DNA of 60,252 nt from a virus. Taxonomy: Duplodnaviria; Caudoviricetes. The position numbers and the translations under genes are program-made. Positions 6,401-53,346 of this stretch are shown here, piece after piece (positions within the stretch are counted from its first letter, which is position 1; every line of letters starts with the position of its first letter). Below the pieces are notes generated by a model. The model was given only the letters and a program-made list of their open reading frames with translations. It made no database searches and was not told the origin of the DNA. The stretch is taken from positions 1-60,252 of IMG/VR virus record IMGVR_UViG_3300021599_001627; one strand, written 5' to 3'.

Positions 6401-6626
6401 GTTTCCAGGCGCGGGATCTGGTGCAGTAGTTGGCTTGGCCAGCTAGGCGAAGACGGCGCAGAACACGGTCCACCAGGCGCGCCAGGGGTTCATACTCGAC
6501 GCCCTCGGGGGCGAGGCTGGCGATCGAGCGGGCGAGATGGGCGGTCTGGCCTTCACCGCGTGCGAGGTGCCAGCGCACTTGGTCTGCTGTCCAGTCTTCG
6601 AGCTCGGGGGAGAAGGTGTGGGGCAT
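6315..6626 (-). CDS. Hypothetical protein (possible winged helix)
   Basis: 103-aa ORF starting directly after the tRNA; its 3' end overlaps the HNH gene convergently. Confidence 0.55.
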
Positions 6627-6698
6627 GGGGGCCGCGAGGATCGAACTCGCCTTAGACCGATTATGAGTCGGCTGCTCTCACCAGATAGCTAGACCCCC
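6626..6698 (-). tRNA. tRNA with CAT anticodon (Ile2/lysidine type or elongator Met); CCA not encoded
   Basis: GGGGGTC TA GCTA TCTGGTGA GAGC A GCCGA CTCATAA TCGGT CTAAG GCGAG TTCGATC CTCGC GGCCCCC A folds as a cloverleaf. The paired 1:72 argues against initiator. Confidence 0.93.
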
Positions 6699-8225: not shown

Positions 8226-8690
8226 CTACGCGTCCTCGGGGTCGGCAGAGGGCAGGAGCTCGGGGCCGTCGTCCTCGGGGGTGGCGTCGGGGATCTGCAT
8301 CAGGCCGTAGATCTGCGACTCCAGGTCCGAGACGGTGCGCTCCAGCAGCTTGCGCTCCTGGTAGGCGGCGGCGCCGTTCAACAGGGCGCGGGAGGCGGCG
8401 ATGCGGTCGCTGGCGCGGGCGTTCTGGTCGCTCATGATCTCGGTGAGCGTCGCGATGGCGTCAGGCATCAACGCCAGGCCCTTGGACTCGGAGACGTCGA
8501 TCAGCTCCTGCTGCAGGGCGTAGACGGCGCGCTGGACCGCGGGGCGTTTGCGCCAGTTGTAGAGGGCGCGCTCGGAGACGCCGAGGGCGCGGGCAACTTC
8601 GCGGCAGGTCTTACCGCGGGCGAGCAGTTCGGCGGCCATGCGCTCGTTCTCGCGGAGGCCGTCAATGAGGGACGCATTTCGTGCCGGCAT
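8226..8690 (-). CDS. Putative terminase small subunit (N-terminal HTH)
   Basis: HTH TCREVARALGVSERALYNW; directly upstream of terL. Confidence 0.7.
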   Translation of the reverse strand: MPARNASLIDGLRENERMAAELLARGKTCREVARALGVSERALYNWRKRPAVQRAVYALQQELIDVSESKGLALMPDAIATLTEIMSDQNARASDRIAASRALLNGAAAYQERKLLERTVSDLESQIYGLMQIPDATPEDDGPELLPSADPEDA

Positions 8691-8731
8691 GTTCCGAACC
8701 GTGCTGAAGGTTGCCGAAGTTGTGCTTCAGA

Positions 8732-8908
8732 TTAGCGGGGAAAAGTGGGCGTGTTGTCGTCCCATTCGGGCACGAGATGGGCGCTGAGAAAGGTAGTGTT
8801 AGGGCAGAGTTCTTTTGCTGTAGTAATGGCGTGAGGCAGGTCTCGTGCCATTAAGTGCAGCGCAGGAGCGTGGGAGAACGTCACGCAGTAGAGCTGAAGG
8901 TGCTTCAT
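8732..8908 (-). CDS. Hypothetical protein (58 aa)
   Basis: Translated by hand: MKHLQLYCVTFSHAPALHLMARDLPHAITTAKELCP...; fills the operon gap. Confidence 0.6.
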   Translation of the reverse strand: MKHLQLYCVTFSHAPALHLMARDLPHAITTAKELCPNTTFLSAHLVPEWDDNTPTFPR

Positions 8909-8912
8909 TGGC

Positions 8913-9200
8913 TCAGCCCTCGCGCTGTTGTCGTTCTGCGGCGAAGTCCAGGTCGTAGTCCTTGCTGAGCTTCACCATGTCCTCGATTGGGCGGCATTCG
9001 TTGAAGGCCAGCTGGCAGGCGCCGCGCATGATCAGCTTTTCGGTCATGCCGGCAGCTCCGAGGACGCTCTCAAAGACCTTGAACCAGGCATGGATTGAGC
9101 AGTCGTCCATGTCGGCCTCCCAGGTGGTTGTCATCTCGCCGGGTTCGTCGATGGATCCTTGGCGGTAGCGCTCGTCGGTGAGCTTGATTTCGAGTTTCAC
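8913..9200 (-). CDS. Hypothetical protein
   Basis: GTG start overlapping the upstream TGA (GTGA); (M)KLEIKLTDERY... Confidence 0.65.
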   Translation of the reverse strand: MKLEIKLTDERYRQGSIDEPGEMTTTWEADMDDCSIHAWFKVFESVLGAAGMTEKLIMRGACQLAFNECRPIEDMVKLSKDYDLDFAAERQQREG

Positions 9201-9448
9201 TGGCCCTCCAGCTCGGCGGCGATGGCGAGGAGGTCCTTCTGGCAACGGGCAGCACCCTTCAAGAAACCAATCTCAAAGGGTGTCACTCCTGGGCACTCAC
9301 CATTGGTCACATCAAGCTGCTCAGCAGCAGCGCGGAGGGCGGCGGCGACATTCTCACGAAGATCATCCATTTGCAGCCCTGTGTCCTCGCAATCGCCTAG
9401 GAAGGCATCCAGCACCGCCTGCGCGGCGGGGGAGAGAGGTTTAGTCAT
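9197..9448 (-). CDS. Modular-array protein, family G (MTKPLSPAAQAVLDA...AAALRAAA...LAIAAELE)
   Basis: Paralog of 9819-10058; ATGACTAA stop/start overlap. Confidence 0.75.
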   Translation of the reverse strand: MTKPLSPAAQAVLDAFLGDCEDTGLQMDDLRENVAAALRAAAEQLDVTNGECPGVTPFEIGFLKGAARCQKDLLAIAAELEGQ

Positions 9449-9812
9449 TGAGTTGCTCCAAAGCGCGGCGGATGGTGTCAATGCCCGAATCCATGAGCAC
9501 TATTTCGCCAGAGGTGTACCGCTGCAGAACGTCTAGCGCCTGCTCCTTCAAGCTCGGCGGCTCGGGCTGGGCGTGTTGCCAGCGGCTGTCGGGATGGCTC
9601 AAGATTGCCTCAGCCAACGCAGCAGCGCCTTTGTCGTGGTTGCCGTCAACCCTACGGATGATTGCTGCCAAACGCAGAATGTCATCTACTTCGGGCATTG
9701 GCCCCTGCGGCTCGGGCTGGGCCAGAGCGGCGCGGGCGCGGTCCACCAACTCGGCTGGCGCTACCTCTAGCCAGTCCAGCAACTCAGCGCATAGTGCTCG
9801 AAAGTCAGTCAT
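9441..9812 (-). CDS. Modular-array protein, chimera of MTDFRALCAEL/ARAALAQPEPQGP and PPSLKEQAL/DTIRRALEQL modules
   Basis: N-terminal modules shared with 10055-10375; C-terminal modules shared with 10368-10700 and 11409-11735. Confidence 0.8.
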   Translation of the reverse strand: MTDFRALCAELLDWLEVAPAELVDRARAALAQPEPQGPMPEVDDILRLAAIIRRVDGNHDKGAAALAEAILSHPDSRWQHAQPEPPSLKEQALDVLQRYTSGEIVLMDSGIDTIRRALEQLND

Positions 9813-9814
9813 CG

Positions 9815-9855
9815 GTTTTCAGTGGTAGAGGTTTTCAGTGGTAGAGGTTTTCAGT
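9815..9855. repeat. 16-bp tandem repeat, 2.5 copies (gttttcagtggtagag)
   Basis: Exact copies at 9815 and 9831; partial copy at 9847. Confidence 0.9.
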
Positions 9856-10058
9856 TCGGCGGCAATAGCGAGGATGCCTGCTCGCGTGATCTCGCGCTGC
9901 ACCGCAGCAGCGTTATCTGGCGGCCCAAACCGGTTTTCCGGCACCACCTGATCCGCAGCGGCGCGCAGGGCTGCTGCCATTGCATCGACATCCGCTGGCT
10001 CGAAGTCGCCGTAGGCGTCCAGAATTGCCTGCGCGGCGGGGGAGAAAGGTTTAGTCAT
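9819..10058 (-). CDS. Modular-array protein, family G
   Basis: MTKPFSPAAQAILDA...AAALRAAADQV...LAIAAEL. Confidence 0.75.
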   Translation of the reverse strand: MTKPFSPAAQAILDAYGDFEPADVDAMAAALRAAADQVVPENRFGPPDNAAAVQREITRAGILAIAAELKTSTTENLYH

Positions 10059-10375
10059 TGATTCCCCCATCGGGCTAAGACGGCGCGGGCGTACTCCAGT
10101 GCTGAGTGGTTTAAGCAGACACGAAAGATGCCAGGTTTGACCTGGCCGCCAGTCGCATCACTGCAGACCTTGGCCGCATAGCTGAACTCATCCCGCATCG
10201 TTTCGGGCATCAGCTCCAGTAACTCCTCATCCGTCGGCCCCTGCGGCTCGGGCTGGGCCAGAGCGGCGCGGGCATCGGCGGTGCAGATTTCAAAAAGACT
10301 CTTATGCCGCAAGGGCCAGTTGGCTTTTTCCAAGCAGTCAACCAGCTCAGCGCAAAGTGTTCGGAAGTCAGTCAT
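10055..10375 (-). CDS. Modular-array protein (MTDFRTLCAEL...ARAALAQPEPQGPTDEEL...ARAVLARWG)
   Basis: ATGACTGA overlap with the upstream gene; shared modules. Confidence 0.8.
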   Translation of the reverse strand: MTDFRTLCAELVDCLEKANWPLRHKSLFEICTADARAALAQPEPQGPTDEELLELMPETMRDEFSYAAKVCSDATGGQVKPGIFRVCLNHSALEYARAVLARWGNQ

Positions 10376-10700
10376 CAATTTGCTCCAGGGCGCGGCGGAT
10401 GGTGTCACGGTCGCCCTCATTGCCGAATGAATCAACTGCATCCAGAGCATTCAGCGCCTGCTCCTTCAAGCTCGGCGGCCTAGGGCGGCGGCCTTTATGC
10501 AGCAATGAAGCAAGACGTTCGCCTTCGCAAGTGTCCCAGCCAATCAGCCACTCGCAGCACGCCTCCAGCTCCTGGTCGGCGCTCCATTGGGCGGCGTGGT
10601 GGGCAACGTACTCAGTGACAGTGCAGTAGTCCTGATGGCGGCCTTCTGTGTCCCACTGCTGCATCAGCTCCGGCGGTGGGGTGATTGGGTGGTCAGTCAT
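10368..10700 (-). CDS. Modular-array protein (ITPPPEL..QW / AAQW.AD.ELEACCE / PPSLKEQAL / DTIRRALEQ)
   Basis: Paralogous to 10888-11244 and 11409-11735. Confidence 0.8.
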   Translation of the reverse strand: MTDHPITPPPELMQQWDTEGRHQDYCTVTEYVAHHAAQWSADQELEACCEWLIGWDTCEGERLASLLHKGRRPRPPSLKEQALNALDAVDSFGNEGDRDTIRRALEQIDD

Positions 10701-10891
10701 TGATAGATCTCCATCGCTTGGTCGATTAGATCATCGAGTTGTTCTATACCGTGAAAGCCTGTTCCATTTACAGCCAAGCGGTGAGACGGATGGTATTCTT
10801 CACCGGTTTCACGGATCCACTTGACACCCTCTGTACTAAGTACGAGATTCTTCTGTCGTTTAATCCATTGGTAGCGGTCTGCATCAGTCAT
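10697..10891 (-). CDS. Hypothetical protein (MTDADRYQWIKRQ...)
   Basis: ATGA overlaps on both sides. Confidence 0.7.
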   Translation of the reverse strand: MTDADRYQWIKRQKNLVLSTEGVKWIRETGEEYHPSHRLAVNGTGFHGIEQLDDLIDQAMEIYQ

Positions 10892-11244
10892 TCAGGTAGC
10901 GCCTCCAGTGCGCGGCGGATGGTGTCGTAAGCAATGTCGTCAATTTTGTCTTGGTTGTAAACGTCACCAAGCTTGATCAATGCCTGCTTCTTCAGGCTTA
11001 ACGACTTGGGGCGCATCGCTTCTTTCAATGATTCACCTACTGGAGTGATCCTTAGATGCGGCTCATTCAAGGCATTATGATCTAGCCATTTTGCATCTTC
11101 CTCAAGTTGCTGATCAGCACCCCATTGGGAGGCGCAATGGGCGATATGTAATTCATAAAGCCAATCGCGGTCTTCGTAGGCTTTTTCGGAAGCCCATTGC
11201 TCTACCAATTCGCGAGGTGGGACAATGGAATGGCAATCAGTCAT
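10888..11244 (-). CDS. Modular-array protein, divergent lower-GC paralog
   Basis: IVPPRELVEQW / ASQWGADQQLE / SLKKQAL / DTIRRALEALPE. Confidence 0.8.
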   Translation of the reverse strand: MTDCHSIVPPRELVEQWASEKAYEDRDWLYELHIAHCASQWGADQQLEEDAKWLDHNALNEPHLRITPVGESLKEAMRPKSLSLKKQALIKLGDVYNQDKIDDIAYDTIRRALEALPE

Positions 11245-11416
11245 CATTCAGATCCTCCGATTTGTAAGGCGGCCTGAGCTGGCCGTGTTCATCGGTGAAG
11301 CCGGCTTCGTACTAGGCCAGATGCGTTAGCACCTTGGCAATGCCATGGCGAACGCTTTGGCCCTCCTCGAACTCGTCAATCAGGCGTTGGGCGCGGGAGG
11401 TGAGGTGGTCAGTCAT
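11237..11416 (-). pseudogene. Array gene interrupted by an in-frame TAG (11312-11314)
   Basis: MTDHLTSRAQRLIDEFEEGQSVRHGIAKVLTHLA*YEAGFTDEHGQLRPPYKSEDLNDD*; both ends carry the array's ATGACTGA junction. Confidence 0.65.
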
Positions 11417-11735
11417 TGAGTTGCTCCAAGGCGCGGCGGACGACATCCAGATCACTGATGTCCCAGGCTTTCTTGTTGCCTTGGATCAGATCAATCAGGG
11501 CAAGGCTTTGCTCCTTCAAGCTCGGCGGCTTGGGGCGGCGAATCGTACGGAGATCTGTTGCAACATGTTTGCCGTCGCAAATCAATTCACGGGCAAGCAC
11601 CTCACAGCACGCCTCCAGCTCAGTGTCTGCGCCCCATTGGGCGGCGCGGGTGGCGATGTGCCCTGCCGTGAGGCCATCTTCCTCATTGATCCACTGCTGC
11701 ACCAGCTCCGGCGGTGGGGTGATGGCGTCGGTCAT
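11409..11735 (-). CDS. Modular-array protein
   Basis: ITPPPELVQQW / AAQWGADTELEACCE / RRPKPPSLKEQ / RRALEQLND. Confidence 0.8.
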   Translation of the reverse strand: MTDAITPPPELVQQWINEEDGLTAGHIATRAAQWGADTELEACCEVLARELICDGKHVATDLRTIRRPKPPSLKEQSLALIDLIQGNKKAWDISDLDVVRRALEQLND

Positions 11736-12013
11736 TCTTCAACCTCATAGCGCTTGCCGATGGCAGTAGCCCAAGCCACCAGATCACTGGCGCGGACGAG
11801 CTGCACTCCATCTTCAGGGCCATCAGCAACACGCCAGTGGCATGAAGCAGTGTCCCTGAGAGCGCACTCAATGGCAGCCTTGGCGCCCCAGGTTGCAGCC
11901 TTAGCGGCGATGTAGAGGGTCTTGTCGCAATGGGCAGCGCCGTTGGTGTCCCATTCGGCTTCCCATTGGCGGATCACTTCAGCGGGTGGAGAGATGAGTC
12001 GTTGATCAGTCAT
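11732..12013 (-). CDS. Modular-array protein (ISPPAEVIRQW / AATWGA)
   Basis: Start MTDQRLI at 12013 via ATGACTGA overlap. Confidence 0.7.
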   Translation of the reverse strand: MTDQRLISPPAEVIRQWEAEWDTNGAAHCDKTLYIAAKAATWGAKAAIECALRDTASCHWRVADGPEDGVQLVRASDLVAWATAIGKRYEVEE

Positions 12014-12188
12014 CTTCGTTGGGCAGGATTTCAAGAAGGGATGTGATGCAGTGTCCCGTGGTGTTTTCAGCGCCAAGGCAGTAGCGCTCTGCTTCGCGCA
12101 GTGCCATGCGCAGCCGCTCCACAACGGGCCACGGATCGCGCAGTTCGGTGGAGAAGTCTTGGAATGGTGCTGGGTGAAAGCTAGTCAT
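12006..12188 (-). CDS. Hypothetical protein (60 aa)
   Basis: Coupled stop/start overlaps on both sides. Confidence 0.65.
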   Translation of the reverse strand: MTSFHPAPFQDFSTELRDPWPVVERLRMALREAERYCLGAENTTGHCITSLLEILPNEDD

Positions 12189-12601
12189 TGGTTGGCTTGG
12201 TCGTAAAGAGCGTTGACGACGATGCCACGATCGCCGGGGTACAGATCTAAGGGTTCTTCGTTAAGCCACAAGGCCATCTCACGGATTGCGGCTCGGGCTT
12301 CAGATGCCCAGTTGACGGCTTCCTCGTCCCGTTCCAGGCCGTACTCAATCCCGCTGATGGCAAGCGCCACCCGCTCCACCAGCGAACTCCTAATTTGGCT
12401 TTGATTAGGAGTTGGCTTGGAGTTGGCCTCCGCCAGAGTGCAGTAGCTGGTGCCCTCGCTGCTGGTGACGATGTGCGGGCAGGTGGCGTTGGCCTCCAGC
12501 GCCTCGACCTTGGCGCGGAGTTCGAGGAGGCAAGCGCGAGTGTCGGAAGCAAACGCTCCGGCATCAGCCCACTGCTCAGGCGTTGCTCGGTAGTCAGGCA
12601 T
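12185..12601 (-). CDS. Hypothetical protein (ATPEQW...CLLELRAKVEALE...SLVERVA...EARAAIRE)
   Basis: 138-aa ORF with coupled overlaps. Confidence 0.75.
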   Translation of the reverse strand: MPDYRATPEQWADAGAFASDTRACLLELRAKVEALEANATCPHIVTSSEGTSYCTLAEANSKPTPNQSQIRSSLVERVALAISGIEYGLERDEEAVNWASEARAAIREMALWLNEEPLDLYPGDRGIVVNALYDQANQ

Positions 12602-12815
12602 GTCTGACCACCCCCGGCAGGTTCCTAAAGTCTTCTCGTGTCATGGTCAGCGATGAGATCACGTTGACCAAGCGCTCACGTTCTTGCGTGGCACCCCATT
12701 CAGAGGCCAAGCGGGCCAGCTCGTAAGCGGCGAGTTCCGGCTTGTCATCACAGCCGAAGAGCTGAGAGCACCACTGCTGCACCAGCTCCGGTGGTGGGGT
12801 GATGGGATCAGTCAT
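12594..12815 (-). CDS. Modular-array protein (MTDPITPPPELVQQW / ASEWGA)
   Basis: Shares a ~33-bp DNA box with 11691-11723. Confidence 0.75.
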   Translation of the reverse strand: MTDPITPPPELVQQWCSQLFGCDDKPELAAYELARLASEWGATQERERLVNVISSLTMTREDFRNLPGVVRHA

Positions 12816-12889
12816 GACGTTCCTTTCACGTAGAGAATGCCCAATGCGACTGACCAAGCAATCATTAGAACCAGTGTTGTTGTACTCAT
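12812..12889 (-). CDS. Small single-TM peptide (25 aa)
   Basis: MSTTTLVLMIAWSVALGILYVKGTS; ATGA overlaps on both sides. Confidence 0.5.
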   Translation of the reverse strand: MSTTTLVLMIAWSVALGILYVKGTS

Positions 12890-13137
12890 GATGTGACAAG
12901 TGATGCGAAGTAATCCCGAAATAGCGACCAATTCACACGTACGATGCGACCCTGCCAGCGCACTGTTCCTTTCGGAGCGACGATCTCGGTGTGCTGGATG
13001 GTCTGGAAGTGCGATCCGCAGCTCGGACAGTCCCGGCGGCGCCAAAAGTGGCCCTCGGGGGTGCGGTTGGTCCGGTTCACGTCGGTTGTCAGGCAGCCGC
13101 ACTCGGGGCAGGGCGGGCCTTGGCGGTTAATCCCCAT
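12886..13137 (-). CDS. NrdR-like zinc-ribbon protein lacking the ATP-cone
   Basis: CPECG..T.V..T......WRRRDCPSCGSHFQTIQ matches the NrdR N-terminal pattern. Confidence 0.7.
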   Translation of the reverse strand: MGINRQGPPCPECGCLTTDVNRTNRTPEGHFWRRRDCPSCGSHFQTIQHTEIVAPKGTVRWQGRIVRVNWSLFRDYFASLVTS

Positions 13138-13247
13138 CAGTCCAGCCAGGAGTCGGAGGCATCGGAGCTAACCGGCGTGCGGGCCCAGCGGGCGGTGGCG
13201 CCGAGGGCGAGGCCCAGGACGATGGCGAGCAAGGCGTAGCGCTTCAT
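13137..13247 (-). CDS. Small membrane or secreted peptide
   Basis: MKRYALLAIVLGLALGATARW...; coupled overlaps. Confidence 0.5.
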   Translation of the reverse strand: MKRYALLAIVLGLALGATARWARTPVSSDASDSWLD

Positions 13248-13414
13248 GAGGTCGTGGTGGAGGTAAAGGCGCGGAGGAGCTGGGCTTTGCGCTCGTCGAT
13301 CAGGTGGGCCGACGAGACGATGGAGCAAGGGCCGCCCTCGGGGAGGCAGATGCGGTAACAGTCGTGGCCGTGGCGGTCGACGTAGTACTCGACGCTGATG
13401 TCGTCGGGGCTCAT
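13244..13414 (-). CDS. Hypothetical protein
   Basis: MSPDDISVEYYVDRHGHDCYRICL...IVSSAHLI; ATGA overlap. Confidence 0.6.
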   Translation of the reverse strand: MSPDDISVEYYVDRHGHDCYRICLPEGGPCSIVSSAHLIDERKAQLLRAFTSTTTS

Positions 13415-15427: not shown

Positions 15428-15724
15428 TCACGCCTTGCGGATCCGGTACGTCGCGACCTGGGCGCCCGCGGCATCCATCTCCTGTACTGACAACAGGCCA
15501 CGGTTGAAGCGGTCTCGGTCGTCACGGTCGAGCCGGGGCAGGGTCACCTCAGACAAGCAGTCGGCATAAGCCGCCAACCAGTACGGCAGGTGGCCGTAGA
15601 CGTGGCGGTGCAGGATGTCGTCGGGACGGACGTATTCGAGACATTCGCCGTTGATACCTTTCTCTTTAAGCCACGCCAGGATTGATTCGTTCGTGAAGGT
15701 GATGATCGGAGCGGTCTCGGGCAT
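15428..15724 (-). CDS. Csx16 (VVA1548)-like protein; candidate cyclic-oligoadenylate ring nuclease or binder
   Basis: WLKEKGI...PDDI...VYGHLPYWLAA...RGLLSVQEMDAAGAQVATYRI follows the Csx16 pattern (V.G.LP..LAA; LS.EEM...GA.L..Y.V), recalled from memory. Confidence 0.65.
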   Translation of the reverse strand: MPETAPIITFTNESILAWLKEKGINGECLEYVRPDDILHRHVYGHLPYWLAAYADCLSEVTLPRLDRDDRDRFNRGLLSVQEMDAAGAQVATYRIRKA

Positions 15725-15820: not shown

Positions 15821-16906
15821 TCACACCAGTGCCAGGCAGGCTTCGCGGGCACGGTCGATCCGCTTGGCGCTGCTGCCACCCCAGAGGGCTTCGAGGCGGG
15901 CGCGGGCACGGTCGGTCTCGTCCTTGGCGCGGCCTGCGTCGTGTGTCTCGAACTGGGTGATGGCGTTGTACAGGCCGTACAGCGTGCCGGCGCAACCGGG
16001 CAGGTCTCGGATGCCCAGGCCGGTGTCACCGGCGTAGTGGCTGCGGATGACGTCGATCTCGGGGAGGTCGGCGATTGTGCGCTGGCGTGGCTTGCCGGTG
16101 TCCTTGTCCTTAATTGGAGAAGCAAGCTTGTCGGCGAAGGTGCTCTCCAGAACGCGCCGGGCGAGCTCGGTGGTGAGCTGGACGTTGGTCAGGGAGCGCA
16201 GCTCGTCGATCGACTGGCGGAAGGAGCGGCGCTCCAGGTCGATCAGGTGCGGCAGGTTCTCGGCGAACTGGGTGACTGATGCCGTGTGCTTCATTCGCAG
16301 ACCGGAGCCGTCACGGCTAGCCAACGTGGCGGCCTTGCCGGTCAGGTAGCTCAGCTGGTTGGCGCACCGCAGGCGGACGTCGCTGAAGAACACGCCGAAG
16401 GAGCTGGAGCCGTCGAAGCTGTTGAAGGCGTGGATGTAGCGGCGGACCCGGTCACCTGGGAGTACTTCGTCCTCGGCGCGGATTGAGGCTGTGGCGAAGA
16501 TCTTGCGGCCGTTGCGGATCGAGAGGACGTTTTCGATCTCGATGTCTTCGCGGAGGTAGTCGAGCAGGTTCACCAGGGCCGTGTTCTGGACCGGCGTGTA
16601 GCCCGAGCCGTGGATGCCCAGGAGCTGGTTGGTGTCGCTGCGAACAATCGAGCAGTGCTCGGGGGATTCGATCGGGCCGTCGGGGCCCATGAAGAAGGCG
16701 GGGCGCTTGTCGGCGGTCCAGTCCAGGCCGGCGATGGCGAATGCCTCACAGGCGGAGGCGTTCTCGGGCGTCATGGTGCCGACGCGGCCGATCAGTGGGT
16801 TCACGGCGTAGCCGCGGTCGCGATACCGGCCGTAAACCATCGGGCCGGAGCTGTCGGCGGAGAACGCGGTGCTGACGCGGTTGGGGCTGCTGAGAGTCAT
16901 TTGCAT
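15821..16906 (-). CDS. DUF932 (TIGR03299-like phage/plasmid) protein
   Basis: AGLDW, RSDT..LLG....YTPVQN, NSFDGSSS, VR..CANQL, KHT, GTLYGLYNAIT. Confidence 0.88.
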   Translation of the reverse strand: MQMTLSSPNRVSTAFSADSSGPMVYGRYRDRGYAVNPLIGRVGTMTPENASACEAFAIAGLDWTADKRPAFFMGPDGPIESPEHCSIVRSDTNQLLGIHGSGYTPVQNTALVNLLDYLREDIEIENVLSIRNGRKIFATASIRAEDEVLPGDRVRRYIHAFNSFDGSSSFGVFFSDVRLRCANQLSYLTGKAATLASRDGSGLRMKHTASVTQFAENLPHLIDLERRSFRQSIDELRSLTNVQLTTELARRVLESTFADKLASPIKDKDTGKPRQRTIADLPEIDVIRSHYAGDTGLGIRDLPGCAGTLYGLYNAITQFETHDAGRAKDETDRARARLEALWGGSSAKRIDRAREACLALV

Positions 16907-23537: not shown

Positions 23538-23879
23538 TCAACCAGAACTGGATGGGGGAGGGTAAATGAGTGTTGAAGGCTCTGGGATATGGCGCGTAGC
23601 TGGGATGTCCTGCTGAGCGGGGAGCGCGTCGCCCGAGGGCGGATGGACCTCGGGGATGGGAACAGTGTCCGGGGCGTCGTACGGCAGCCAGCCGTTCTCG
23701 GGGTTCAAGTCTCGTGTGAGGTCTTCGCCGAGGTTCCACTGGGCGCGGATGATGTCTTCGAAGCACCGTTCGAGGAGCGGCGCATAGCCTGAGTACGTGA
23801 AGGCGCCGTCAGGGCCATCGTGTAGCTCCCAGCGGTAGTAGCCGTCCTCGGTGGAGCGGATGGTGATGAGGAGGGTCAA
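23538..23879 (-). CDS. Hypothetical protein
   Basis: [11 protein letters not shown]...YSG.A..L..CFE.I. Confidence 0.6.
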
Positions 23880-25546
23880 GGTGCAAGGCGGGCTTTGTGG
23901 AGACGAGTTGAGGCGTACCAGGCCGCGATGGCTGGTGACCAGGCTTCAAAGTGAGGCCAGATCAGATCGCACATCTGCTGGATTTCCTGCTGGGCGTCGC
24001 GCTTGGAACGCAGGTCCAGAAAATGCATCAGCGCTCGCAGCGAGAAGCTCACTACGAAGTGCTGGCGGATGGCGTAGGGGATGAGGTCGCGGGCATGCTC
24101 TTCTGACATGCCGCGGTCCAGGGCGAGCTTGAAGCGAGCGGCCGAGTCGATGCAGATGATGCGGTCGATCGTCCGCTGGTCCTGCGTGTACTCGTAGCTC
24201 TTACCGTTCCGGTCTCGGTAGGTGCCGACAGGGCGCAGGTAGAAGACTTCTTCCGCGTTTCGGGTGCCGTTGACCACGTCGATGATGCGCTGGCTCGTAT
24301 AGCGGCCAGAGTTGTGTACAACGATGCCATCAGCCACAAAGTTGTGATGCGGGGCCTCCATGGCGATGTCGTATGTCTGGACTGTCCCGGCCGGGCGGAT
24401 TGACAAAATGCGAACAGCATGAGCTGCCAGCCGATGACGGAGCTTGTGACAACGGGGGCACAAGACAACTATGTTGCTCGCGTTCGTTGCCAGATCAGGT
24501 CTTTCCAGTACCGGATAGACGTGGTGACAGTGCAATCTTGAATGAGGTTGTGCGCAATCTTGACAAAGGTGCCCAGCCTTTGCAAGAAGCGTTGGCCGAG
24601 CGTACTTCAACCAGTTGTAGGCGCGCTTCTCTATCGGAAGGTCATCCTTCCACGATGGATGTGACGGGCCTTGGTTGAGCTTCCCCTTTTGGAGGCTGGC
24701 AGCGTGGCGTCGGCGTCGGTCGCGCTCGGTTTCGCTGATGTCCAGTTTTTTACCTTCGTGGGAATAGGGGGGTCGTTTACGCCATGTTAGCCCGTAGTGA
24801 TAACTCCACTTTTTAACGGCTTCTGTAGAGACACCAGCAATCAATGCAACCTCCTTAGGTATTAGCCCCTTGGCGTAATGCCGCTCTAGCCACTCTTTGT
24901 TTTGATAAGTGGTGGGTGCTTTTGCGGTTGCCCTGCCATTCACCATCATAGTTTCACCTTCTTTCAGCTCACCAGCAGTCTTCCAGCCGCCTGGGGTCAA
25001 GACACGGTGCTCTGTTGTGCACCGCAAAACCTTGCCGTCAGCCAGGCTTAGTTCAAGAACTGGCTTGAGGCCACCATTGAAGACGGCAAATATGCGGTTG
25101 ACTACAAACTCGTTTCTTTCTTCGTCTAATGAGCGAAGCCTGAGGGCGCGGACCTTGCCTGGGTCCTCGTTCCAGAGAGCGGCAACCTTTTCAAGCGTTA
25201 CGGTTCCTGTCTTGATGCCATTTTTGTCAACAACGGTTATCTCGGAAGCCTGATCAAGACACTGCACGTCGAAGCTCACGCCGACCCGGTGGGTGCGGGC
25301 CTGCTGCATCACCGAGTGGGGGAACCAGCCCACGTTGAAGCTGATCTGCGGGTGCTCCAGGGGGCCGTAGTGGCCACGCTCGCCGGCGAGGAGGTGCTTG
25401 ACGACGATGGCGCCGCACTCGGCATCGGACGGGGGGTCCTCGTTGAAGACGAAGTTTTCGCTGTAGTCCTGGTGCATTGCCCACCAGATCAGCGTCTGGG
25501 GTGTTTCAGTCCGGGCGAGGACTTCGACCTTGAAATACGGGTCCAT
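23876..25546 (-). CDS. thyX: Flavin-dependent thymidylate synthase ThyX containing an intein
   Basis: GHYGPLEH, QARTHRVGVSFDVQ|SGRY, EEHARDLIP, FLDLRSKRDAQ.EI; start MDPYF at 25546. Confidence 0.93.
   Translation of the reverse strand: MDPYFKVEVLARTETPQTLIWWAMHQDYSENFVFNEDPPSDAECGAIVVKHLLAGERGHYGPLEHPQISFNVGWFPHSVMQQARTHRVGVSFDVQCLDQASEITVVDKNGIKTGTVTLEKVAALWNEDPGKVRALRLRSLDEERNEFVVNRIFAVFNGGLKPVLELSLADGKVLRCTTEHRVLTPGGWKTAGELKEGETMMVNGRATAKAPTTYQNKEWLERHYAKGLIPKEVALIAGVSTEAVKKWSYHYGLTWRKRPPYSHEGKKLDISETERDRRRRHAASLQKGKLNQGPSHPSWKDDLPIEKRAYNWLKYARPTLLAKAGHLCQDCAQPHSRLHCHHVYPVLERPDLATNASNIVVLCPRCHKLRHRLAAHAVRILSIRPAGTVQTYDIAMEAPHHNFVADGIVVHNSGRYTSQRIIDVVNGTRNAEEVFYLRPVGTYRDRNGKSYEYTQDQRTIDRIICIDSAARFKLALDRGMSEEHARDLIPYAIRQHFVVSFSLRALMHFLDLRSKRDAQQEIQQMCDLIWPHFEAWSPAIAAWYASTRLHKARLAP
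24311..25261 (-). mobile_element. Intein (317 aa) with HNH-type homing endonuclease
   Basis: Starts CLDQASEI; block B CTTEHRVLTPGGW; ends TYDIAM..PHHNFVADGIVVHN/S; internal CQDC..LHCHH..NIVVLCPRCH. Confidence 0.93.
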
Positions 25547-25782
25547 CAGCCTTTGCGGTACACGATTGGACGGGATGAGCACTCGATCTGTGCCACACGC
25601 CAGGTACGGCCCGCGGGATCGAGCAGCGTGTAATGCGGGAAGCCCAGCCAGAGCTCACCACTGACCACCTTGAAGGTCTCGTCGAAGCCACGACCTCGGA
25701 CGTAGACGCTGTTACCTAGGCGGAAGCGCCAGGGGTGGGTGAGGCGCTCTTCGAACTCGGGAACGTGAGGGTGCGGTGTCAT
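25546..25782 (-). CDS. Hypothetical protein
   Basis: ORF track; coupled overlaps. Confidence 0.65.
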   Translation of the reverse strand: MTPHPHVPEFEERLTHPWRFRLGNSVYVRGRGFDETFKVVSGELWLGFPHYTLLDPAGRTWRVAQIECSSRPIVYRKG

Positions 25783-26359: not shown

Positions 26360-26755
26360 TCAGGGTTGCTTGAAAAACGGTTCGAGAATGTCGGGCGAGA
26401 GAAGGCCGATGAAGGACAAGTGCATGCAGTGCCCGGCGCGGCGGTAAATCTCAGGAGGGCCGCCGCTCTCGGGGTCACCAAGCAGCGTCCACAGGAGGTT
26501 GCCCAGCTCCGTCGCGATGCGGTCCGCGTTATCGGGCTCGATGAACAGGGCTGTCACTGCGTGCAACGTCTGTTCAGCCAGCATCTCGGGGATGATTCCG
26601 ATCTCGCTGAGCTCGGCGCGCAAACTCTGCAGGGCCAAGGAGTTGGGTGCGAGCACTGCCTCGACGCTGATTTCGCGGGCCATCGCCATCTGACCGATCA
26701 ATGAGCCCGCTAAGGCTGAGGTCAGGTAGTCCTGCACAGCAGTTCTGGCAGTCAT
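26360..26755 (-). CDS. Hypothetical protein
   Basis: Start MTARTAV at 26755 (TGATG coupling). Confidence 0.65.
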   Translation of the reverse strand: MTARTAVQDYLTSALAGSLIGQMAMAREISVEAVLAPNSLALQSLRAELSEIGIIPEMLAEQTLHAVTALFIEPDNADRIATELGNLLWTLLGDPESGGPPEIYRRAGHCMHLSFIGLLSPDILEPFFKQP

Positions 26756-27444
26756 CACTTGTGGCCCCCCTTGCGCTTGCGGGCGAAGGTGAAGCGCTGC
26801 AGTCGGGCCAGAAAATGCTTGTACAGCTGCTCCAGGGCGCGAGCGTCGAGGGTCTCGATCTGCGGTGCGCTGTCGGCTATGGCGATGACGATCTTGGCCT
26901 GGGTAATGTTCAGACCCATGTGGCCGTAGACGTAGTTCGCAGCAGCGACGTATGCCGCACACTGCAGCGAGTACTCGTAGATCTTGTCCGGTTTGCGCGG
27001 GCTGTCTGCCGTTTTCCAGTCGCACAAAGTCGGCTGAGCGCCGTCCTCGGGGAGATAGCAGATGGCGTCGAGCGTGCCGGCAAAACCGTCCTTATGCCAG
27101 ACCGCGCCGATGGAGTGAATGAAGCCTTGGGTCGACTTCCAGTACGGCGTCGTGGCCACGCTGTACTCGGGTTCGCTGCCGTCGGTCAGGTAGCGCTCGA
27201 TGTTCAGGTGGTGGCCGTTGCCGCGGAAACAGGCGTACGAGCTGATGAAGTCAGCGCGCTCGGCACCGACGGATTCGCGCCAGAGTTCCAGACCGGAGTT
27301 GTCGCGACTGCCCGAGAGGATGGTGGTAACGCTGTGCAGGCTGCCGGCGGGCGTGCTGTACAGACGTTCGTCGCCCTCGTGGGAGCGGACCGGCTCGTAC
27401 CGGGGCAGAAAGGGGACGCGCCCATCAACGAGTGCGGATGTCAT
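26755..27444 (-). CDS. PD-(D/E)XK exonuclease (RecB/Cas4/MGME1-like)
   Basis: SVTTIL, RG...H..IE.YL, AGTLD, DWKT, Y.LQ.AAY. Confidence 0.85.
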   Translation of the reverse strand: MTSALVDGRVPFLPRYEPVRSHEGDERLYSTPAGSLHSVTTILSGSRDNSGLELWRESVGAERADFISSYACFRGNGHHLNIERYLTDGSEPEYSVATTPYWKSTQGFIHSIGAVWHKDGFAGTLDAICYLPEDGAQPTLCDWKTADSPRKPDKIYEYSLQCAAYVAAANYVYGHMGLNITQAKIVIAIADSAPQIETLDARALEQLYKHFLARLQRFTFARKRKGGHK

Positions 27445-27743: not shown

Positions 27744-28286
27744 TCAGGCCGAAGCTTCGGCGAAGGGGTCGTCTCCGTCGAACAGGGCCTGGAGGTTGAT
27801 GCGAACGCCGTCTTTCTCGTACGCAGCCTGGATGTCCTTGGCAACAGGACGGGGCGGAGCAGCGAGCAGGGTGTACTCGGTCTTCATGCCCTCGCCGGTT
27901 TTGCTGATCTTGATGTCGTACTGCGTGGCGTCGCCGTACTCGTCGTCCTTGACGTACTTGAAGAGCTGTTCCATCAGCGTCTTCTGCGTCATCTGCAGGA
28001 TCTTGAAGTCCTGAGAGGAGTAGTCGTAAACGACGATGGCAATAAAGCGCTTCAGCGGGGTCTGACCTTCGCGGACCTTGATGTTGGTGGGCAGCTCTGA
28101 AGGCTTGAGCTCCCAGCGGACGGGCTTGTTCTCATCGGTCCAGCCCTCAAAGCCGCTAACGCCGGTACCGAAGAAGCGCAGGCGGATCTCGCCCTCGATC
28201 TTGGACGGGTTGACGTAGCGACCAGAGCCAGAGGACTCCTTGAGGATCTCGTCGATCAGGTCAGCGGAAAGGAATGTGGCAGTCAT
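27744..28286 (-). CDS. Putative single-stranded DNA-binding protein
   Basis: VYDY....KIL..TQKT, YDIKISKTGEG.KTEY, acidic C-terminus LFDGDDPF; next to the exonuclease. Confidence 0.7.
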   Translation of the reverse strand: MTATFLSADLIDEILKESSGSGRYVNPSKIEGEIRLRFFGTGVSGFEGWTDENKPVRWELKPSELPTNIKVREGQTPLKRFIAIVVYDYSSQDFKILQMTQKTLMEQLFKYVKDDEYGDATQYDIKISKTGEGMKTEYTLLAAPPRPVAKDIQAAYEKDGVRINLQALFDGDDPFAEASA

Positions 28287-36289: not shown

Positions 36290-37420
36290 TCAGAGGGTTA
36301 GGCCGTGCATGGCTTTCTGAATCCGGTCGGCTTCGATCCACCGCTGGTAAGTCGACTGATGCACGGACAGGCTGTGCCCCATCAGTCGGGCGGCCAGGTC
36401 CGCGGCCACACCCTTGCTCATCAGGCGCAACGCGTAGGCGTGCCGCAGGTTGTACGGCTTGATCGTCACCTGATCTCTGGCGAGGGCGTCGGAGAACGCC
36501 TTGCTGAGGCCCTGGGCGGACTGACTCGGCCGACACAAATTGTGAAGATCAAACTGGCTTACCCACGCTCTCGGGCAGGGAGTGACCCGCCGGCTGCCGG
36601 TCTTGGTGGCGTCGGCCACCTCGATCCAGTCGTCCTCCAGCCAGATCAGCTCGGCGCATTCGTGGGGGCGGAGGCCGTAGGCCGCGCACATGGCAAAGGT
36701 CCAGCGCCAGTGCGGCAGAGTGACTTGCTTGAGCGCGGCCTCGATTGCCTCGTCCGACGGGATGTCGCGCTCGGTGAGCTTGTCGACGCCGTAGCCGCGG
36801 CAGGCGGCGAGCAGTGGCTCGTGATCGAGGCCGAGGGAGCGGGCCACCTGGGCCAGCAGGTTGCCCTGGTCGCGCCGGGCGGCAGTGCCCTCGGGGAGCT
36901 TTCGGATGCAGCGGAGCAGGACCCCCTCAGTGATGACCCCCGAGGGCGGCAGTTTGCGTAGGGCCGGCGCCCACTTCTTCGACCAGGCGGCGGTGCCGCG
37001 CTCGGGGGCTTTGGCGTACTTGCTGGCGTGGAGGCCCTGGGCGGCAGCGTGGAAGTCCGACACGGTGATGACGGACGCGTCAGGAGCTTCCCACGCAGTC
37101 CACGTAAAGGTGCTGGTGCGTAACTGGTGGCCCAGCTCGACGGCTTTGCGTTCGGCTTCGGGGAGGGCGGAGAACTCGGCGGGCAGTCCGAGGGCAATGC
37201 GCTGCTGGCGTCGCTGCGACGGATCGTCACGCGTTGGCAGGGTTGCCCTGAGGTGCAGGGAGGCCCCGCGCAGCTCGACAACGCACTTCTGGTGCCCGGC
37301 CTTCAGGCGGGCGTTCAGCTCTTGTAGGGCAGCGTCGAGGGCCAAGGTCTGGACTAAAACCTGGACTACTTTCCCCGTCAGCTTAGGTCTGTTTTGGTCG
37401 AGCCTGGCTGAATTAAGCAA
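36290..37420 (-). CDS. int: Tyrosine integrase (true start probably near 37345)
   Basis: YGLRPHE (R), TKTG.R (K), LRHAYALR (HxxR), LMGHS, H..TY (Y). Confidence 0.93.
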   Translation of the reverse strand: MLNSARLDQNRPKLTGKVVQVLVQTLALDAALQELNARLKAGHQKCVVELRGASLHLRATLPTRDDPSQRRQQRIALGLPAEFSALPEAERKAVELGHQLRTSTFTWTAWEAPDASVITVSDFHAAAQGLHASKYAKAPERGTAAWSKKWAPALRKLPPSGVITEGVLLRCIRKLPEGTAARRDQGNLLAQVARSLGLDHEPLLAACRGYGVDKLTERDIPSDEAIEAALKQVTLPHWRWTFAMCAAYGLRPHECAELIWLEDDWIEVADATKTGSRRVTPCPRAWVSQFDLHNLCRPSQSAQGLSKAFSDALARDQVTIKPYNLRHAYALRLMSKGVAADLAARLMGHSLSVHQSTYQRWIEADRIQKAMHGLTL

Positions 37421-39934: not shown

Positions 39935-40100
39935 TGGCTACCTCCTGTGCGGCGACAAAGGCTGCTGCTGCCTCCTGAATGGCATCCATGGTTGGGTAGT
40001 CGTTGAACTTGAAGAACTGCGCTTCAGTATTGGTGAGCACGACACGGGCGTACCACTTGCCAGCGAGGTCCTGTTCAACAGCATGGACGTGATAGGTCAT
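39918..40100 (-). CDS. Small tail-region protein
   Basis: ORF track; operon context. Confidence 0.6.
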   Translation of the reverse strand: MTYHVHAVEQDLAGKWYARVVLTNTEAQFFKFNDYPTMDAIQEAAAAFVAAQEVANAPAE

Positions 40101-40102
40101 GG

Positions 40103-42550: not shown

Positions 42551-42558
42551 GCTTTACC

Positions 42559-42768
42559 TCAGGCGGTGTACTTGATCCAAATGTCGCCGTCGATCCCACC
42601 AGTGGGATCGGTAGTACTGGTAGTGATGTTGTTGATCTTCACCATGCTGCCAGCTGCATTCTTCACGTACAACCGACCATTGGTTGAGTCCCAAGCTGGT
42701 TCACCTTCAACAAACGATACTGCGCTCGGTACTGTGCTACCGCGCCGTAACCTCAGCGTGTTAGCCAT
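42559..42768 (-). CDS. Short tail-fibre-like protein
   Basis: MANTLRLRRG...GEPAW.....LY...PTGG.DGDIWIKY. Confidence 0.65.
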   Translation of the reverse strand: MANTLRLRRGSTVPSAVSFVEGEPAWDSTNGRLYVKNAAGSMVKINNITTSTTDPTGGIDGDIWIKYTA

Positions 42769-42770
42769 GT

Positions 42771-43616
42771 TCAGAACGTCCCGCAATCCACGGTGATACC
42801 ATCAAACGTGGTGAGGTTTGTGATTGACCCACCTGTAATTGTGACGTTTATGGCGTCTTGCGTGCTAAGGGTACCCAACCCACTGATGTCCGTGTTGGGG
42901 ATAGTGGCACTCGCTGTCAGCGCTGCAGTGCCGGACCCTTTGACGTAGCCCGTCAAGCTGGTGGCACCCGTTCCCCCATAGGCCACGGAAATTGCCGTGC
43001 CCTGCCACACACCGGTGCCAATGGTGCCAACGCTGGTGAGGCTGGAGCTGGTGACCCCACTGCCCAAAGTGCTGCCGCTGAGCACGCTGGTGCCGTTGAT
43101 GTAGAACGCCTTACCGCTAGCAAGATTCAGGTGCTCGCTGCTAGTCCAGGCATCCGTGGCATCAACCCAGTTGAAGGTCTTATCCGTGGTGCCCTTGAGC
43201 GTAATGCCACCGCCATCCGCACCGGCATCAGTGGGACTAGCAGTGTCCCCAAGAACAATGTTTTTATCGTCAACTGTGATCGTGGTTGAGTTGATCGTTG
43301 TCGTCGTGCCGTTTACAGTCAGATCACCACCGACAGTGATATTGCCTGTAGTGCTGAACGAAGCGATGGTGGCACTACTGAGATCAACGGTGCCGGTAAA
43401 CGTCTTATTGCCGCTGATTGTCTGCGATGTGTCCAGCGTGATGTAGGCGCCGCTGCCGCCGATGGCAACAACACTGGTGGCTGAGCCCCCTGCTCCCCCG
43501 GTTCCAACGCCAATGAACAGCTTGGAGCTGTTCTCCGAATAGGCCAGCTCTGCATTGGCCAGCGTTGAAGGCGCTGCCGTAGCGGTTGAGCGTTTGATTC
43601 TGATCGTGTTCGGCAC
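42771..43616 (-). CDS. Tail fibre-like structural protein
   Basis: IRIKRS..AP..L..AELAY, GDLTVNGTTTTINST...VDDKNI, GGTGAT, VDCGTF. Confidence 0.8.
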   Translation of the reverse strand: MPNTIRIKRSTATAAPSTLANAELAYSENSSKLFIGVGTGGAGGSATSVVAIGGSGAYITLDTSQTISGNKTFTGTVDLSSATIASFSTTGNITVGGDLTVNGTTTTINSTTITVDDKNIVLGDTASPTDAGADGGGITLKGTTDKTFNWVDATDAWTSSEHLNLASGKAFYINGTSVLSGSTLGSGVTSSSLTSVGTIGTGVWQGTAISVAYGGTGATSLTGYVKGSGTAALTASATIPNTDISGLGTLSTQDAINVTITGGSITNLTTFDGITVDCGTF

Positions 43617-43664
43617 GGCGGCCTAAGGCTGAAGCTAGCCCCAGCTTATCGCTGGTCTACGATT

Positions 43665-53343: not shown

Positions 53344-53346
53344 GGC

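Follow-up and report, generated by a model that had tools for sequence, protein, structure and literature searches.

A freshwater Synechococcus/Cyanobium-type siphovirus carries, in the window analysed here (the whole stretch of 60,252 nucleotides), a row of small genes that reuse the same short DNA boxes, which raises the question of whether the segments between the boxes are shuffled and, if so, where, how fast and by what machinery. The original prediction was that short-homology recombination between the boxes does this, as a diversification system of the phage itself. The row comprises 13 translationally coupled small genes on the minus strand from 12815 to 9197. It is operon-like, runs into the terminase genes and is positioned between the replication/nucleotide genes and the small terminase gene, with the tail genes at 46-60 kb. 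The genes, with shared boxes lettered A to G and variable cassettes numbered S1 to S3, are as follows.

g1, 12594-12815, minus strand: 73 aa; box A (12771-12815, 91% identical to the copy in g5), S1 cassette, diverged box B and an unrelated tail
g2, 12185-12601, minus strand: 138 aa; separate family, relatives with conserved ends and a variable middle
g3, 12006-12188, minus strand: 60 aa; relatives in 6 sources
g4, 11732-12013, minus strand: 93 aa; diverged boxes A and B, followed by a C-terminal part found elsewhere as a gene of its own
g5, 11409-11735, minus strand: 108 aa; full A-S1-B-S2-C-S3-D member; boxes A 11691-11723, B 11598-11654, C 11505-11552, D 11412-11441; cassettes S1 11655-11690, S2 11553-11597, S3 11442-11504
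g6, 11312-11416, minus strand: 34 aa; probably a truncated copy
g7, 10888-11247, minus strand: 119 aa; full member with lower GC3 (0.50)
g8, 10697-10891, minus strand: 64 aa; GC3 0.44; no relative in the related viral loci compared
g9, 10368-10700, minus strand: 110 aa; full member; box A within 10653-10697, B within 10546-10609, C within 10443-10487, D within 10370-10407
g10, 10055-10375, minus strand: 106 aa; member of the E/F family with box E 10335-10375, box F 10236-10273 and a further conserved box at the C terminus
g11, 9819-10058, minus strand: 79 aa; member of the G family, which has three boxes and two variable segments; box G 10013-10061 at the N terminus
g12, 9441-9812, minus strand: 123 aa; inter-family chimera; box E 9772-9812, F 9700-9737, spacer, C 9525-9569, D 9443-9480
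g13, 9197-9448, minus strand: 83 aa; G family; box G 9403-9451

As predicted, nine of the 13 genes reuse modules in different combinations: A+B+C+D in g5, g7 and g9, A+B with other sequence in g1 and g4, E+F+C+D in g12, E+F with other sequence in g10, and G in g11 and g13; g2, g3, g6 and g8 have no shared boxes. The predicted combination of near-identical boxes and unrelated spacers was likewise borne out, with the strongest boxes 74-100% identical and the spacers giving no alignment.

Box F: 38 nt, 9700-9737 and 10236-10273, 100% identical
Box A: 45 nt, copies at 10653, 11691 and 12771, 82-91% identical
Box D: 38 nt, four copies, 74-87% identical
Box G: 49 nt, 90% identical
Box C: 37 nt, three copies, 73-89% identical
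Box B: 64 nt, three copies, 63-80% identical

In the 3,703-nt array stretch, repeated 12-mers number 145 and the longest exact repeat measures 38 nt; 200 first-order Markov resamples gave a mean of 0.87 repeated 12-mers (maximum 12) and no repeat longer than 17 nt, and the 33 other stretches of the same size in the window reached maxima of 26 repeated 12-mers and a 25-nt repeat. At least three small-protein families (phrog_32006, E/F and G) share one building plan, in which constant boxes of about 30-57 nt are kept at the nucleotide level and variable cassettes of about 30-66 nt occur as many discrete alleles.

The main family of the array is phrog_32006, a profile of 116 positions that matches g5 (E 3.6e-25, positions 8-114), g9 (E 1.3e-24) and g7 (E 3.7e-17) at full length. 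Partial matches cover positions 2-57 only in g1 (N-terminal half, E 6.9e-06) and g4 (positions 2-52, E 1.2e-05), and positions 76-112 only in g12 (E 0.0049). The family is very diverse and widespread in phages of lake picocyanobacteria: relatives number at least 575 in viral contigs and form 2,655 representative clusters at E<=0.001. Three cultured Synechococcus phages (S-H1, S-CBS2 and S-RIP1) have one copy each, and these three are the only members that do not come from metagenome assemblies. Among cellular genomes, only three MAG contigs, labelled Synechococcus, Cyanobium and 'Fonsibacter', confidently contain the family. The array proteins matched no Pfam family, Foldseek returned nothing at E<=0.001, a separate fold comparison reached a best Z of 5.4, and matches in the Atlas were viral hypothetical proteins only. 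Relatives of g2 occur in 21 sources with split matches, such as residues 1-48 and 68-138 at L021; residues 44-91 of g4 form a separate 70-aa ORF at L033 and L035; and the relative of g6 at L013 has 104 aa. Contigs of runs X1 and X9 have 147 extra bases at 11312/11313.

To follow the cassettes through the family we used 84 members below 85% amino acid identity from 80 viral contigs, the best 80 of at least 575 loci, after dropping 18 duplicate and three near-duplicate sequences. Mean identity was 0.75-0.83 in boxes and 0.10-0.17 in cassettes, and identities in the three cassettes were uncorrelated with one another (Spearman 0.02, -0.05 and 0.03). Pairs of genes alike in one cassette nearly always differed in another: 50 of 53 for S1 then S2, 42 of 43 for S2 then S3, and 33 of 34 for S3 then S1. 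All 84 genes had distinct combinations of 51, 54 and 55 cassette types with adjusted mutual information of at most 0.04; as the types are defined on the very segments whose linkage is measured, what informs here is the missing cross-association together with its decay inside the boxes, where association with cassette type drops from 0.4-0.85 to about zero within one to four codons. The pattern of independent cassettes repeated in 115 representatives, a set clustered at 50% identity and so biased towards discordance.

Individual genes demonstrate the same reassortment. Seven of the nine cassettes in the window have a foreign counterpart at 82% amino acid identity or more (84-96% in DNA) in a gene whose other cassettes are at most 27% identical. 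The three cassettes of g5 match three different foreign genes (L014, L011 and L008) at 95-100% amino acid identity, and in g9 S2 is 100% identical to a gene at L086 and S3 94% to one at L043, the other cassettes reaching at most 21%. S-H1, S-CBS2 and S-RIP1 each have a single cassette in common (92-100%) with a metagenomic gene, the remaining cassettes of that gene being at most 23% identical. The joints of g12 coincide with the edges of boxes F and C: positions 9737 to 9557 are 97.8% identical over 181 nt to 4506-4686 of L025, after which the sequence becomes a g9-like box C. Gene number, order and combinations all differ among relatives, as the original prediction had anticipated, and the breakpoints of reassorting segments fall inside boxes or at their edges.

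Boxes were also found to be conserved in DNA beyond what the protein requires. Across the 84 members the four constant boxes have fixed codons, rare ones included; measured against a codon background drawn from the family genes themselves, P7 is CCA in 91% versus 25%, A42 GCG in 95% versus 20%, L73 TTG in 86% versus 16%, S72 AGC in 90% versus 34% and P68 CCC in 85% versus 23%. Box-edge residues L78, L81, L47 and A36 are equally conserved, yet use background codons. A 20-mer of box C recurs exactly in 42 of 81 foreign loci and a 27-mer of box A in 34 of 81. Within the array, synonymous sites of g7 are near saturation relative to g5 and g9 (same codons at 18 of 44, 16.8 expected); the family as a whole presents the opposite of a fixed gene order with saturated synonymous sites.

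A second kind of joint lies between genes. The word ATGACTGA contains a start codon in frame 0 and TGA in frames +1 and +2, and ATGACTAA is a variant that starts g11 and g13.

ATGACTGA at eight gene starts: 9805, 10368, 10693, 10884, 11237, 11409, 12006 and 12808, minus strand, span 9805 to 12815

The window has 11 copies of ATGACTGA, these eight included, where 1.39 are expected, and 10 of the 12 internal junctions are stop/start overlaps of 4 or 8 nt. Over 740,690 nt the word occurs 216 times on the array strand versus 9 on the opposite strand; it stands at 79 of 160 array gene starts, 148 of which have an ATGA overlap. Box D and ATGACTGA together also serve the following gene as its ribosome site.

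That last property invites a reading in which the boxes are fixed for a translational or RNA reason and have no role in recombination, the cassettes diverging fast by mutation. An SD-like GGAG does occur in each of boxes A to D (AAGGAG in box C), and that of box D sits 7 nt before the next ATG. GGAG leaves the fixed CCA, GCG, TTG, CAA and CCC codons unexplained, however; no RNA fold is conserved in the family (-9.5 kcal/mol, covariation term -0.55), and each alternative frame is open in at most 11 of the 84 members. Nor can divergence yield the same discrete cassette allele in different combinations, and we regard this as the least probable of the alternatives. Barely more probable, and still very unlikely, is that the cassettes are real and their free reassortment was made by short-read assemblers crossing at the boxes of co-occurring phages. 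Depth in box-holding bins rises to 40 times that of unique sequence (844 versus about 20), Logan contigs end at boxes, and many box-to-box joints derive from other genomes. On the other side, the boxes, at 33-57 nt, should fall short of the large k-mers and read lengths that assemblies usually have, and contigs of independent runs (X1 record 5; X9 records 28 and 29) span g9 and g7 each in full with no mismatch. The single-cassette sharing of the three isolates argues the same way, as does the recurrence of the array in 20 runs from 11 studies.

We give equally slim odds to a dedicated nuclease or recombinase that recognises the boxes and drives frequent exchange among paralogs in one genome. 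Box fixation at the nucleotide level down to rare codons, several possible donor paralogs per genome, and an exonuclease and SSB-like gene in the phage speak for such a machine. Paralogs on the same contig are nevertheless not homogenised, with box identity of 0.750 (25 pairs) versus 0.790 between contigs (3,461 pairs), so that the predicted self-contained diversifier within this genome finds no support. Fast turnover fares no better, since the 20 recurrences are almost letter for letter and span 2019-2025, about six years of stability. All genes are on one strand, inverted repeats are only weak (27 nt or less, 74-88%), and no reverse transcriptase or recombinase adjoins the array. The prediction of a system without a reverse transcriptase holds as far as the scanned ORFs go: Pfam detected no such enzyme among the 13 genes of the array or among 36 larger ORFs, in a record about 86% complete. 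It had also named possible helpers, and an exonuclease (26755-27444), an SSB-like protein (27744-28286) and a DUF932 protein (15821-16906) are present, with nothing that ties them to the array; no single-strand annealing protein was identified in the phage.

Together, the sequence comparisons are best explained, and with good probability, by recombination at the boxes that shuffles cassettes between phages over evolutionary time, combining a constant-box/cassette design with exchange at gene junctions. Homologous or short-homology recombination inside the boxes would reassort the cassettes, mostly between different phages meeting in one cell; it would occasionally join halves of different families, as in g12, and whole genes could be swapped at ATGACTGA, which would end the upstream gene in either other frame and then restart translation. 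We infer that phage or host enzymes carry out this exchange by ordinary recombination and that no dedicated machine does so, and that constant exchange and protein constraint keep the boxes identical.

A form for the proteins is suggested by structure prediction. The monomer is predicted with five helices (pLDDT 87.1). The homodimer scores 0.48 (best control 0.00), a mark that 20 of 30 proteins solved as pairs attain, against one of 23 solved as single chains; the contacts agree between runs to at least 52%, and the partner pLDDT is no lower than 62. The predicted interface is residues 27-44, which is box B, and the proteins may be small helical dimers held via box B, with cassettes under diversifying selection that face variable targets in the host or in rival phages. 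A diversified protein of this kind is a good candidate arms-race factor (anti-defence, host take-over or exclusion). A bolder reading, which we hold only tentatively, is that the boxes are kept letter for letter as recombination joints of an evolved framework with swappable cassettes in at least three families, giving a dimeric effector repertoire without reverse transcriptase, and that the array is a viral counterpart of antigenic-variation gene families directed at variable host defences or rival phages. If so, the cassette types of our sample alone (51 x 54 x 55) would offer the phage metapopulation on the order of 10^5 effector versions, paralogs of one array could in addition pair with each other via box B, common to all members, and multiply the repertoire, and the ATGACTGA junction would turn whole genes into frame-independent plug-in units.

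The array shows how viruses can generate many versions of one protein. Its cassettes are virtually unlinked at a distance of just 50 nt and its joints hold rare codons frozen, and it offers a clean natural system for measuring the homology needs of phage recombination and for asking whether sequence can be maintained for recombination's sake. The dual-stop start word is a simple rule that may also aid gene calling in such arrays.

Several known systems resemble this design in part. Diversity-generating retroelements likewise target variation to a defined part of a phage protein; here, the 49 scanned ORFs include no reverse transcriptase, and the variable segments are unrelated alleles that do not align rather than adenine-mutated template copies. 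An invertase shufflon of the Rci/Cin/Min type does not fit 13 of 13 genes on one strand, best inverted repeats of 27 nt at 74% or 14-17 nt at 88-93%, and no adjoining site-specific recombinase, the sole integrase-like ORF of the phage lying at 36290-37420.

In the gp38 tail-fibre adhesins of T2/T6-type phages, Trojet et al. 2011 (PMC3157838) describe glycine-rich motifs that separate hypervariable segments and are thought to form the core, and modular shuffling between the motifs has been proposed. Both are small phage proteins with strictly conserved motifs alternating with hypervariable segments, a likeness of design and not descent; Pfam and fold searches revealed no similarity in sequence or fold. 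As portrayed there, gp38 is a virion adhesin with one copy per genome, whereas the array proteins are helical, multi-copy, outside the tail module and beside two similarly built families, and a gp38-type adhesin does not fit boxes that are not glycine-rich in an array away from the tail genes. Free reassortment and box codon fixation are measured for the array family; we found no such measurements for gp38 in the passages of PMC3157838 consulted.

The hyperplastic regions of T4-type phages contain PeSL cassettes (promoter-early stem-loops), intergenic promoter-plus-terminator units described by Arbiol et al. 2010 (PMC2839356). There too, short repeats serve as recombination joints; they lie between small non-essential genes, which are added, removed and swapped. 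Unlike intergenic PeSLs, the array junction is the overlapping stop/start word ATGACTGA and most joints are inside coding sequence. Region 8600-13400 has sigma-70 promoter-like and terminator-like sites not above expectation (1 against 1.3 and 3 against 4.5), and neighbouring genes there share 4 or 8 nt where they meet.

Descriptions of phage mosaicism usually deal with genes and modules. In lambdoid phages, whose mosaicism involves relaxed homologous recombination and boundary sequences, short or diverged homology suffices and yields sharp-bordered mosaics, mostly at that scale; the array likewise points to short or diverged homology, with exchange units of 30-66 nt, or 10-20 codons, inside a 110-residue protein. 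Hypervariable regions HV1 and HV2 of Neisseria Opa proteins assort independently between conserved frameworks in multi-copy cellular surface antigens that face host immunity. The array family shares with Opa the independently assorting variable regions and the multi-copy organisation but is, unlike Opa, a phage-encoded small protein of cytoplasmic type.

All 13 small genes of the array (g1 to g13) lie on the minus strand and run from 12815 down to 9197, continuing into the small terminase gene. They are assembled from short DNA boxes, A to G, reused in nine of the 13 genes with the module content originally noted. Box F is an exact repeat of 38 nt; identity is 73-91% for boxes A, C, D and G, over 37-49 nt, and 63-80% for box B, over 64 nt. 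As had been noted, the sequence between boxes fails to align. We counted 145 repeated 12-mers in the array stretch, compared with a mean of 0.87 in 200 first-order Markov resamples and a maximum of 26 in 33 other window stretches, which bears out the combinatorial-box observation as a whole. A different 3.7-kb stretch of the window, with at most 26 repeated 12-mers, holds a 25-nt exact direct repeat. Four array genes recur individually below:

9441-9812, minus strand, g12, with boxes of two families
10697-10891, minus strand, g8
10888-11247, minus strand, g7, a full-length family member
11312-11416, minus strand, g6

phrog_32006, a phage family of no known function, is represented at full length by three genes (g5, g7 and g9); in it, boxes A to D alternate with variable cassettes (A-S1-B-S2-C-S3-D). 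Only its first half is present in g1 and g4, and only its end in g12. A second family, with boxes E and F, is common to g10 and g12, and a third, with box G, to g11 and g13; in relatives, both likewise have conserved boxes with variable stretches between them. A Pfam scan of the 13 genes gave sub-threshold matches only, and a literature search by motif strings and keywords, with subscription journals and supplements outside its reach, returned no description of the family. The paper on the cyanosiphovirus S-LBS1 (PMC6157547) makes no mention of paralogs, duplication, repeats, gene families or hypothetical genes, and uses 'mosaic' once. A profile search of 1.84 billion representatives yielded 2,655 phrog_32006-type clusters at E<=0.001, and a scan of viral contigs yielded at least 575 relatives, of which the best 80 loci were fetched. 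These loci and the window supplied 105 full-length ORFs, reduced to 84 for codon and cassette analyses by removing 18 exact duplicates and three at >=85% amino acid identity. Some family representatives of 168-281 aa (P0001-P0011 and others) contain two or three matched stretches each; they are tandem copies fused in one frame, as an in-frame junction would give.

We delimited boxes (A 5-15, B 28-46, C 62-77, D 99-108) and cassettes (S1 16-27, S2 47-61, S3 78-98) by the residues of g5. Across the 84 members, mean amino acid identity is 0.75-0.83 in boxes and 0.10-0.17 in cassettes, and pairwise identities of the three cassettes are uncorrelated (Spearman 0.02, -0.05 and 0.03). Among pairs at least 80% alike in S1, 50 of 53 show no more than 30% likeness in S2; S3 differs in 42 of the 43 pairs that are alike in S2, and S1 in 33 of the 34 that are alike in S3. 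Single-linkage clustering at 60% identity gave 51, 54 and 55 cassette types, whose combinations are distinct in all 84 members, with adjusted mutual information between positions of at most 0.04. Codons associate with cassette type at 0.4-0.85 within a cassette, a value that falls to about 0 one to four codons into the adjoining box. The same pattern held in 115 single-domain representatives among the best 150 of the 2,655 clusters, a set in which 50% clustering biases towards discordance. The three cassettes of g5 match genes of three different viral loci: S1 that of L014 (100% in protein, 92% in DNA), S2 that of L011 (100% and 96%) and S3 that of L008 (95% and 94%). Such a foreign counterpart exists for seven of the nine cassettes of g5, g7 and g9, and the other two cassettes of the matching gene are at most 27% identical.

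An inter-family chimera with mapped joints is formed by g12. Over 181 nt (9737..9557) it is 97.8% identical to part of a 284-aa ORF of the E/F family in the related locus L025, compared with about 79% for the remainder of the two loci. The high-identity tract starts at the first base of box F and stops at ...AGCCCGAGCCGC, past which g12 runs on as a g9-like box C and L025 does not. The joint falls within a few bases of common sequence. L025 also has a hybrid of E/F with box B, and in two further loci (L033 and L035) a separate gene corresponds to the C-terminal part of g4.

Conservation of the boxes reaches the DNA itself, as the original prediction held: box codons are fixed and synonymous sites unsaturated. 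Identical residues share the same codon more often than codon usage predicts in g5-g9 (39 of 55, 22.5 expected), g9-g12 (18 of 23, 8.2 expected), g10-g12 (26 of 41, 15.4 expected) and g11-g13 (22 of 36, 13.0 expected); g7 is at expectation (18 of 44, 16.8 expected) and is synonymously saturated against g5 and g9. The effect is stronger across phages than among window paralogs, and in the 84 members one codon, rare ones included, dominates at conserved in-box residues. Equally conserved residues at box edges (A36, L47, L78 and L81) show background codons, providing an internal control for saturation.

Dominant codons at conserved in-box residues of 84 members, with the background derived from the same family genes
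P7: CCA 91%, background 25%
Q33: CAA 89%, background 47%
A42: GCG 95%, background 20%
P68: CCC 85%, background 23%
S72: AGC 90%, background 34%
L73: TTG 86%, background 16%

A 20-mer of box C recurs exactly in 42 of 81 foreign loci and a 27-mer of box A in 34; none of the 81 has an exact copy of the 38-mer of box F, though 94-97% identical ones occur. Two other causes of box conservation were rejected: RNA structure (the consensus fold has -9.5 kcal/mol and a covariation term of -0.55 over 463 columns) and an overlapping gene, since each alternative frame is open in 11 of the 84 members at most. Box D is conserved in DNA partly because it places GGAG 7 bases ahead of the next ATG.

Gene junctions are similarly stereotyped. 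The window has 11 ATGACTGA words, against 1.39 expected, and eight of them are array gene starts; g11 and g13 begin with ATGACTAA and g5 with ATGACCGA. The word ATGACTGA carries ATG in frame 0 and one stop in each other frame. Upstream genes terminate at ATGA, overlapping the next gene by 4 nt, or at the second stop, overlapping it by 8 nt (...AATGACTGA). Across the 80 related loci, the array strand has 216 copies of the word and the opposite strand 9. Of 160 array gene starts there, 79 use ATGACTGA and 22 ATGACTAA; the ATGA overlap is present at 148 and the second stop at 117. A search around the array for promoters of the PeSL type and for terminators found no excess of such sites.

The main risk to this reading is assembly artefact, in which chimeric joining at boxes would generate the apparent cassette reassortment. 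Contigs do end at boxes, where bin depth rises as high as 844 compared with about 20; boxes are therefore common to many co-occurring genomes, which both gives scope for exchange and makes chimeric assembly the chief hazard. However, for both g9 and g7, contigs from independent runs cover the complete gene, and cultured isolates give the same single-cassette pattern: phages S-H1 and S-CBS2 and the podovirus S-RIP1 have one member each, with exactly one cassette (92-100%) in common with a metagenomic gene and the other cassettes unrelated. Many box-to-box 'joints' occur in contigs, with sides shorter than 40 nt at 90% likeness; other phages are their most likely source, and no conclusion is taken from them or from uncovered parts.

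The reassortment does not look like rapid diversification within one genome. Box DNA identity is 0.750 among paralogs on one contig (25 pairs) and 0.790 between contigs (3,461 pairs), with same-codon fractions of 0.667 and 0.696; we rejected intragenomic gene conversion as the main homogenizer, since within-contig pairs are no more alike than between-contig pairs. The array recurs near-verbatim in 20 runs from 11 studies (2019-2025), and pieces of it recur without any difference in runs of four studies, in a comparison made on contigs with rare variants below its sight. Of the original reading, the repeat observation stands and the interpretation is partly supported: cassettes reassort freely, with linkage decaying inside boxes, and a fast, self-contained diversifying system is not supported. 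Two contigs from different studies (X1 record 5 and X9 record 29) carry 147 extra bases at 11312/11313, exactly the g6 stop codon; g6 is 34 aa in the window and 104 aa in its relative in L013, and the window copy looks like a deletion variant. Third-position GC is 0.50 in g7 and 0.44 in g8 (10697-11247) compared with 0.6-0.9 in neighbors, and the g7-g8 segment was probably acquired recently from a phage of lower GC.

Given the 84-row alignment, AlphaFold2 predicted five helices (9-18, 24-50, 55-66, 73-85 and 93-104; pLDDT 87.1, pTM 0.57), with cassettes spanning helix ends and inter-helix loops. Foldseek against the PDB gave nothing at E<=0.001, a wide VIA-align search peaked at Z 5.4, within noise for helical models, and the ESM Atlas returned viral hypothetical clusters only. 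A predicted homodimer scored 0.48 (best control 0.00). Among proteins of solved structure, 20 of 30 paired ones and 1 of 23 single-chain ones attained this mark. Dimer runs agree in at least 52% of contacts with partner pLDDT of at least 62, and the predicted interface is symmetric and centered on box B (residues 27-44). The model supports two copies of the protein binding each other via box B.

With an estimated completeness of 86%, the window, a linear viral record of 60,252 bases, encodes a portal, large and small terminase, lambda-like tail proteins, an endolysin and an integrase-like ORF, together with a sigma factor, an intein-bearing ThyX, a dNMP kinase, a family A DNA polymerase, a primase-polymerase, an exonuclease, an SSB-like protein and a DUF932 protein. 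A PDB sequence search with the SSB-like ORF found no relative (E 0.37) and identified no annealing protein. The large terminase of the window reaches at best 34% identity to those of cultured cyanophages, among cultured phages the array stretch has only short DNA matches, to Synechococcus phages S-CBS2 and S-H1, and the stretch occurs in runs of lake or freshwater metagenomes. Among cellular genomes, confident relatives of the main family lie on three MAG contigs only, labelled Synechococcus, Cyanobium and 'Fonsibacter'. We read the window as a siphovirus infecting freshwater picocyanobacteria. A MAG contig labelled Candidatus Fonsibacter lacus (L089) has an array 88.5% identical over 462 nt to g3-g4, with several family members, and is most likely a phage contig binned to the wrong organism. 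Other features of the window include:

6626-6698, minus strand, tRNA-Met gene directly downstream of the large terminase gene
15428-15724, 98-aa ORF adjoining the DUF932 gene, with a near-threshold Cas_VVA1548 match (24.8 bits, cut-off 25, E 2.5e-05)
23876-25582, ThyX gene split by an intein with an HNH endonuclease domain
40001-44000 and 52001-58000, regions of much lower GC (0.46-0.53; genome about 0.6) with few long ORFs

In design, the array resembles the gp38 adhesins of T2/T6-type phages, in which conserved motifs lie between hypervariable segments (PMC3157838), much as boxes alternate with cassettes here. PeSL cassettes of T4-type phages have repeated joints (PMC2839356), and those of the array play a similar role. 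The array does not fit the defining features of gp38 adhesins, PeSL cassettes, DGRs or shufflons; it is a case of recombination-driven modular shuffling that is unusually fine-grained and clean.
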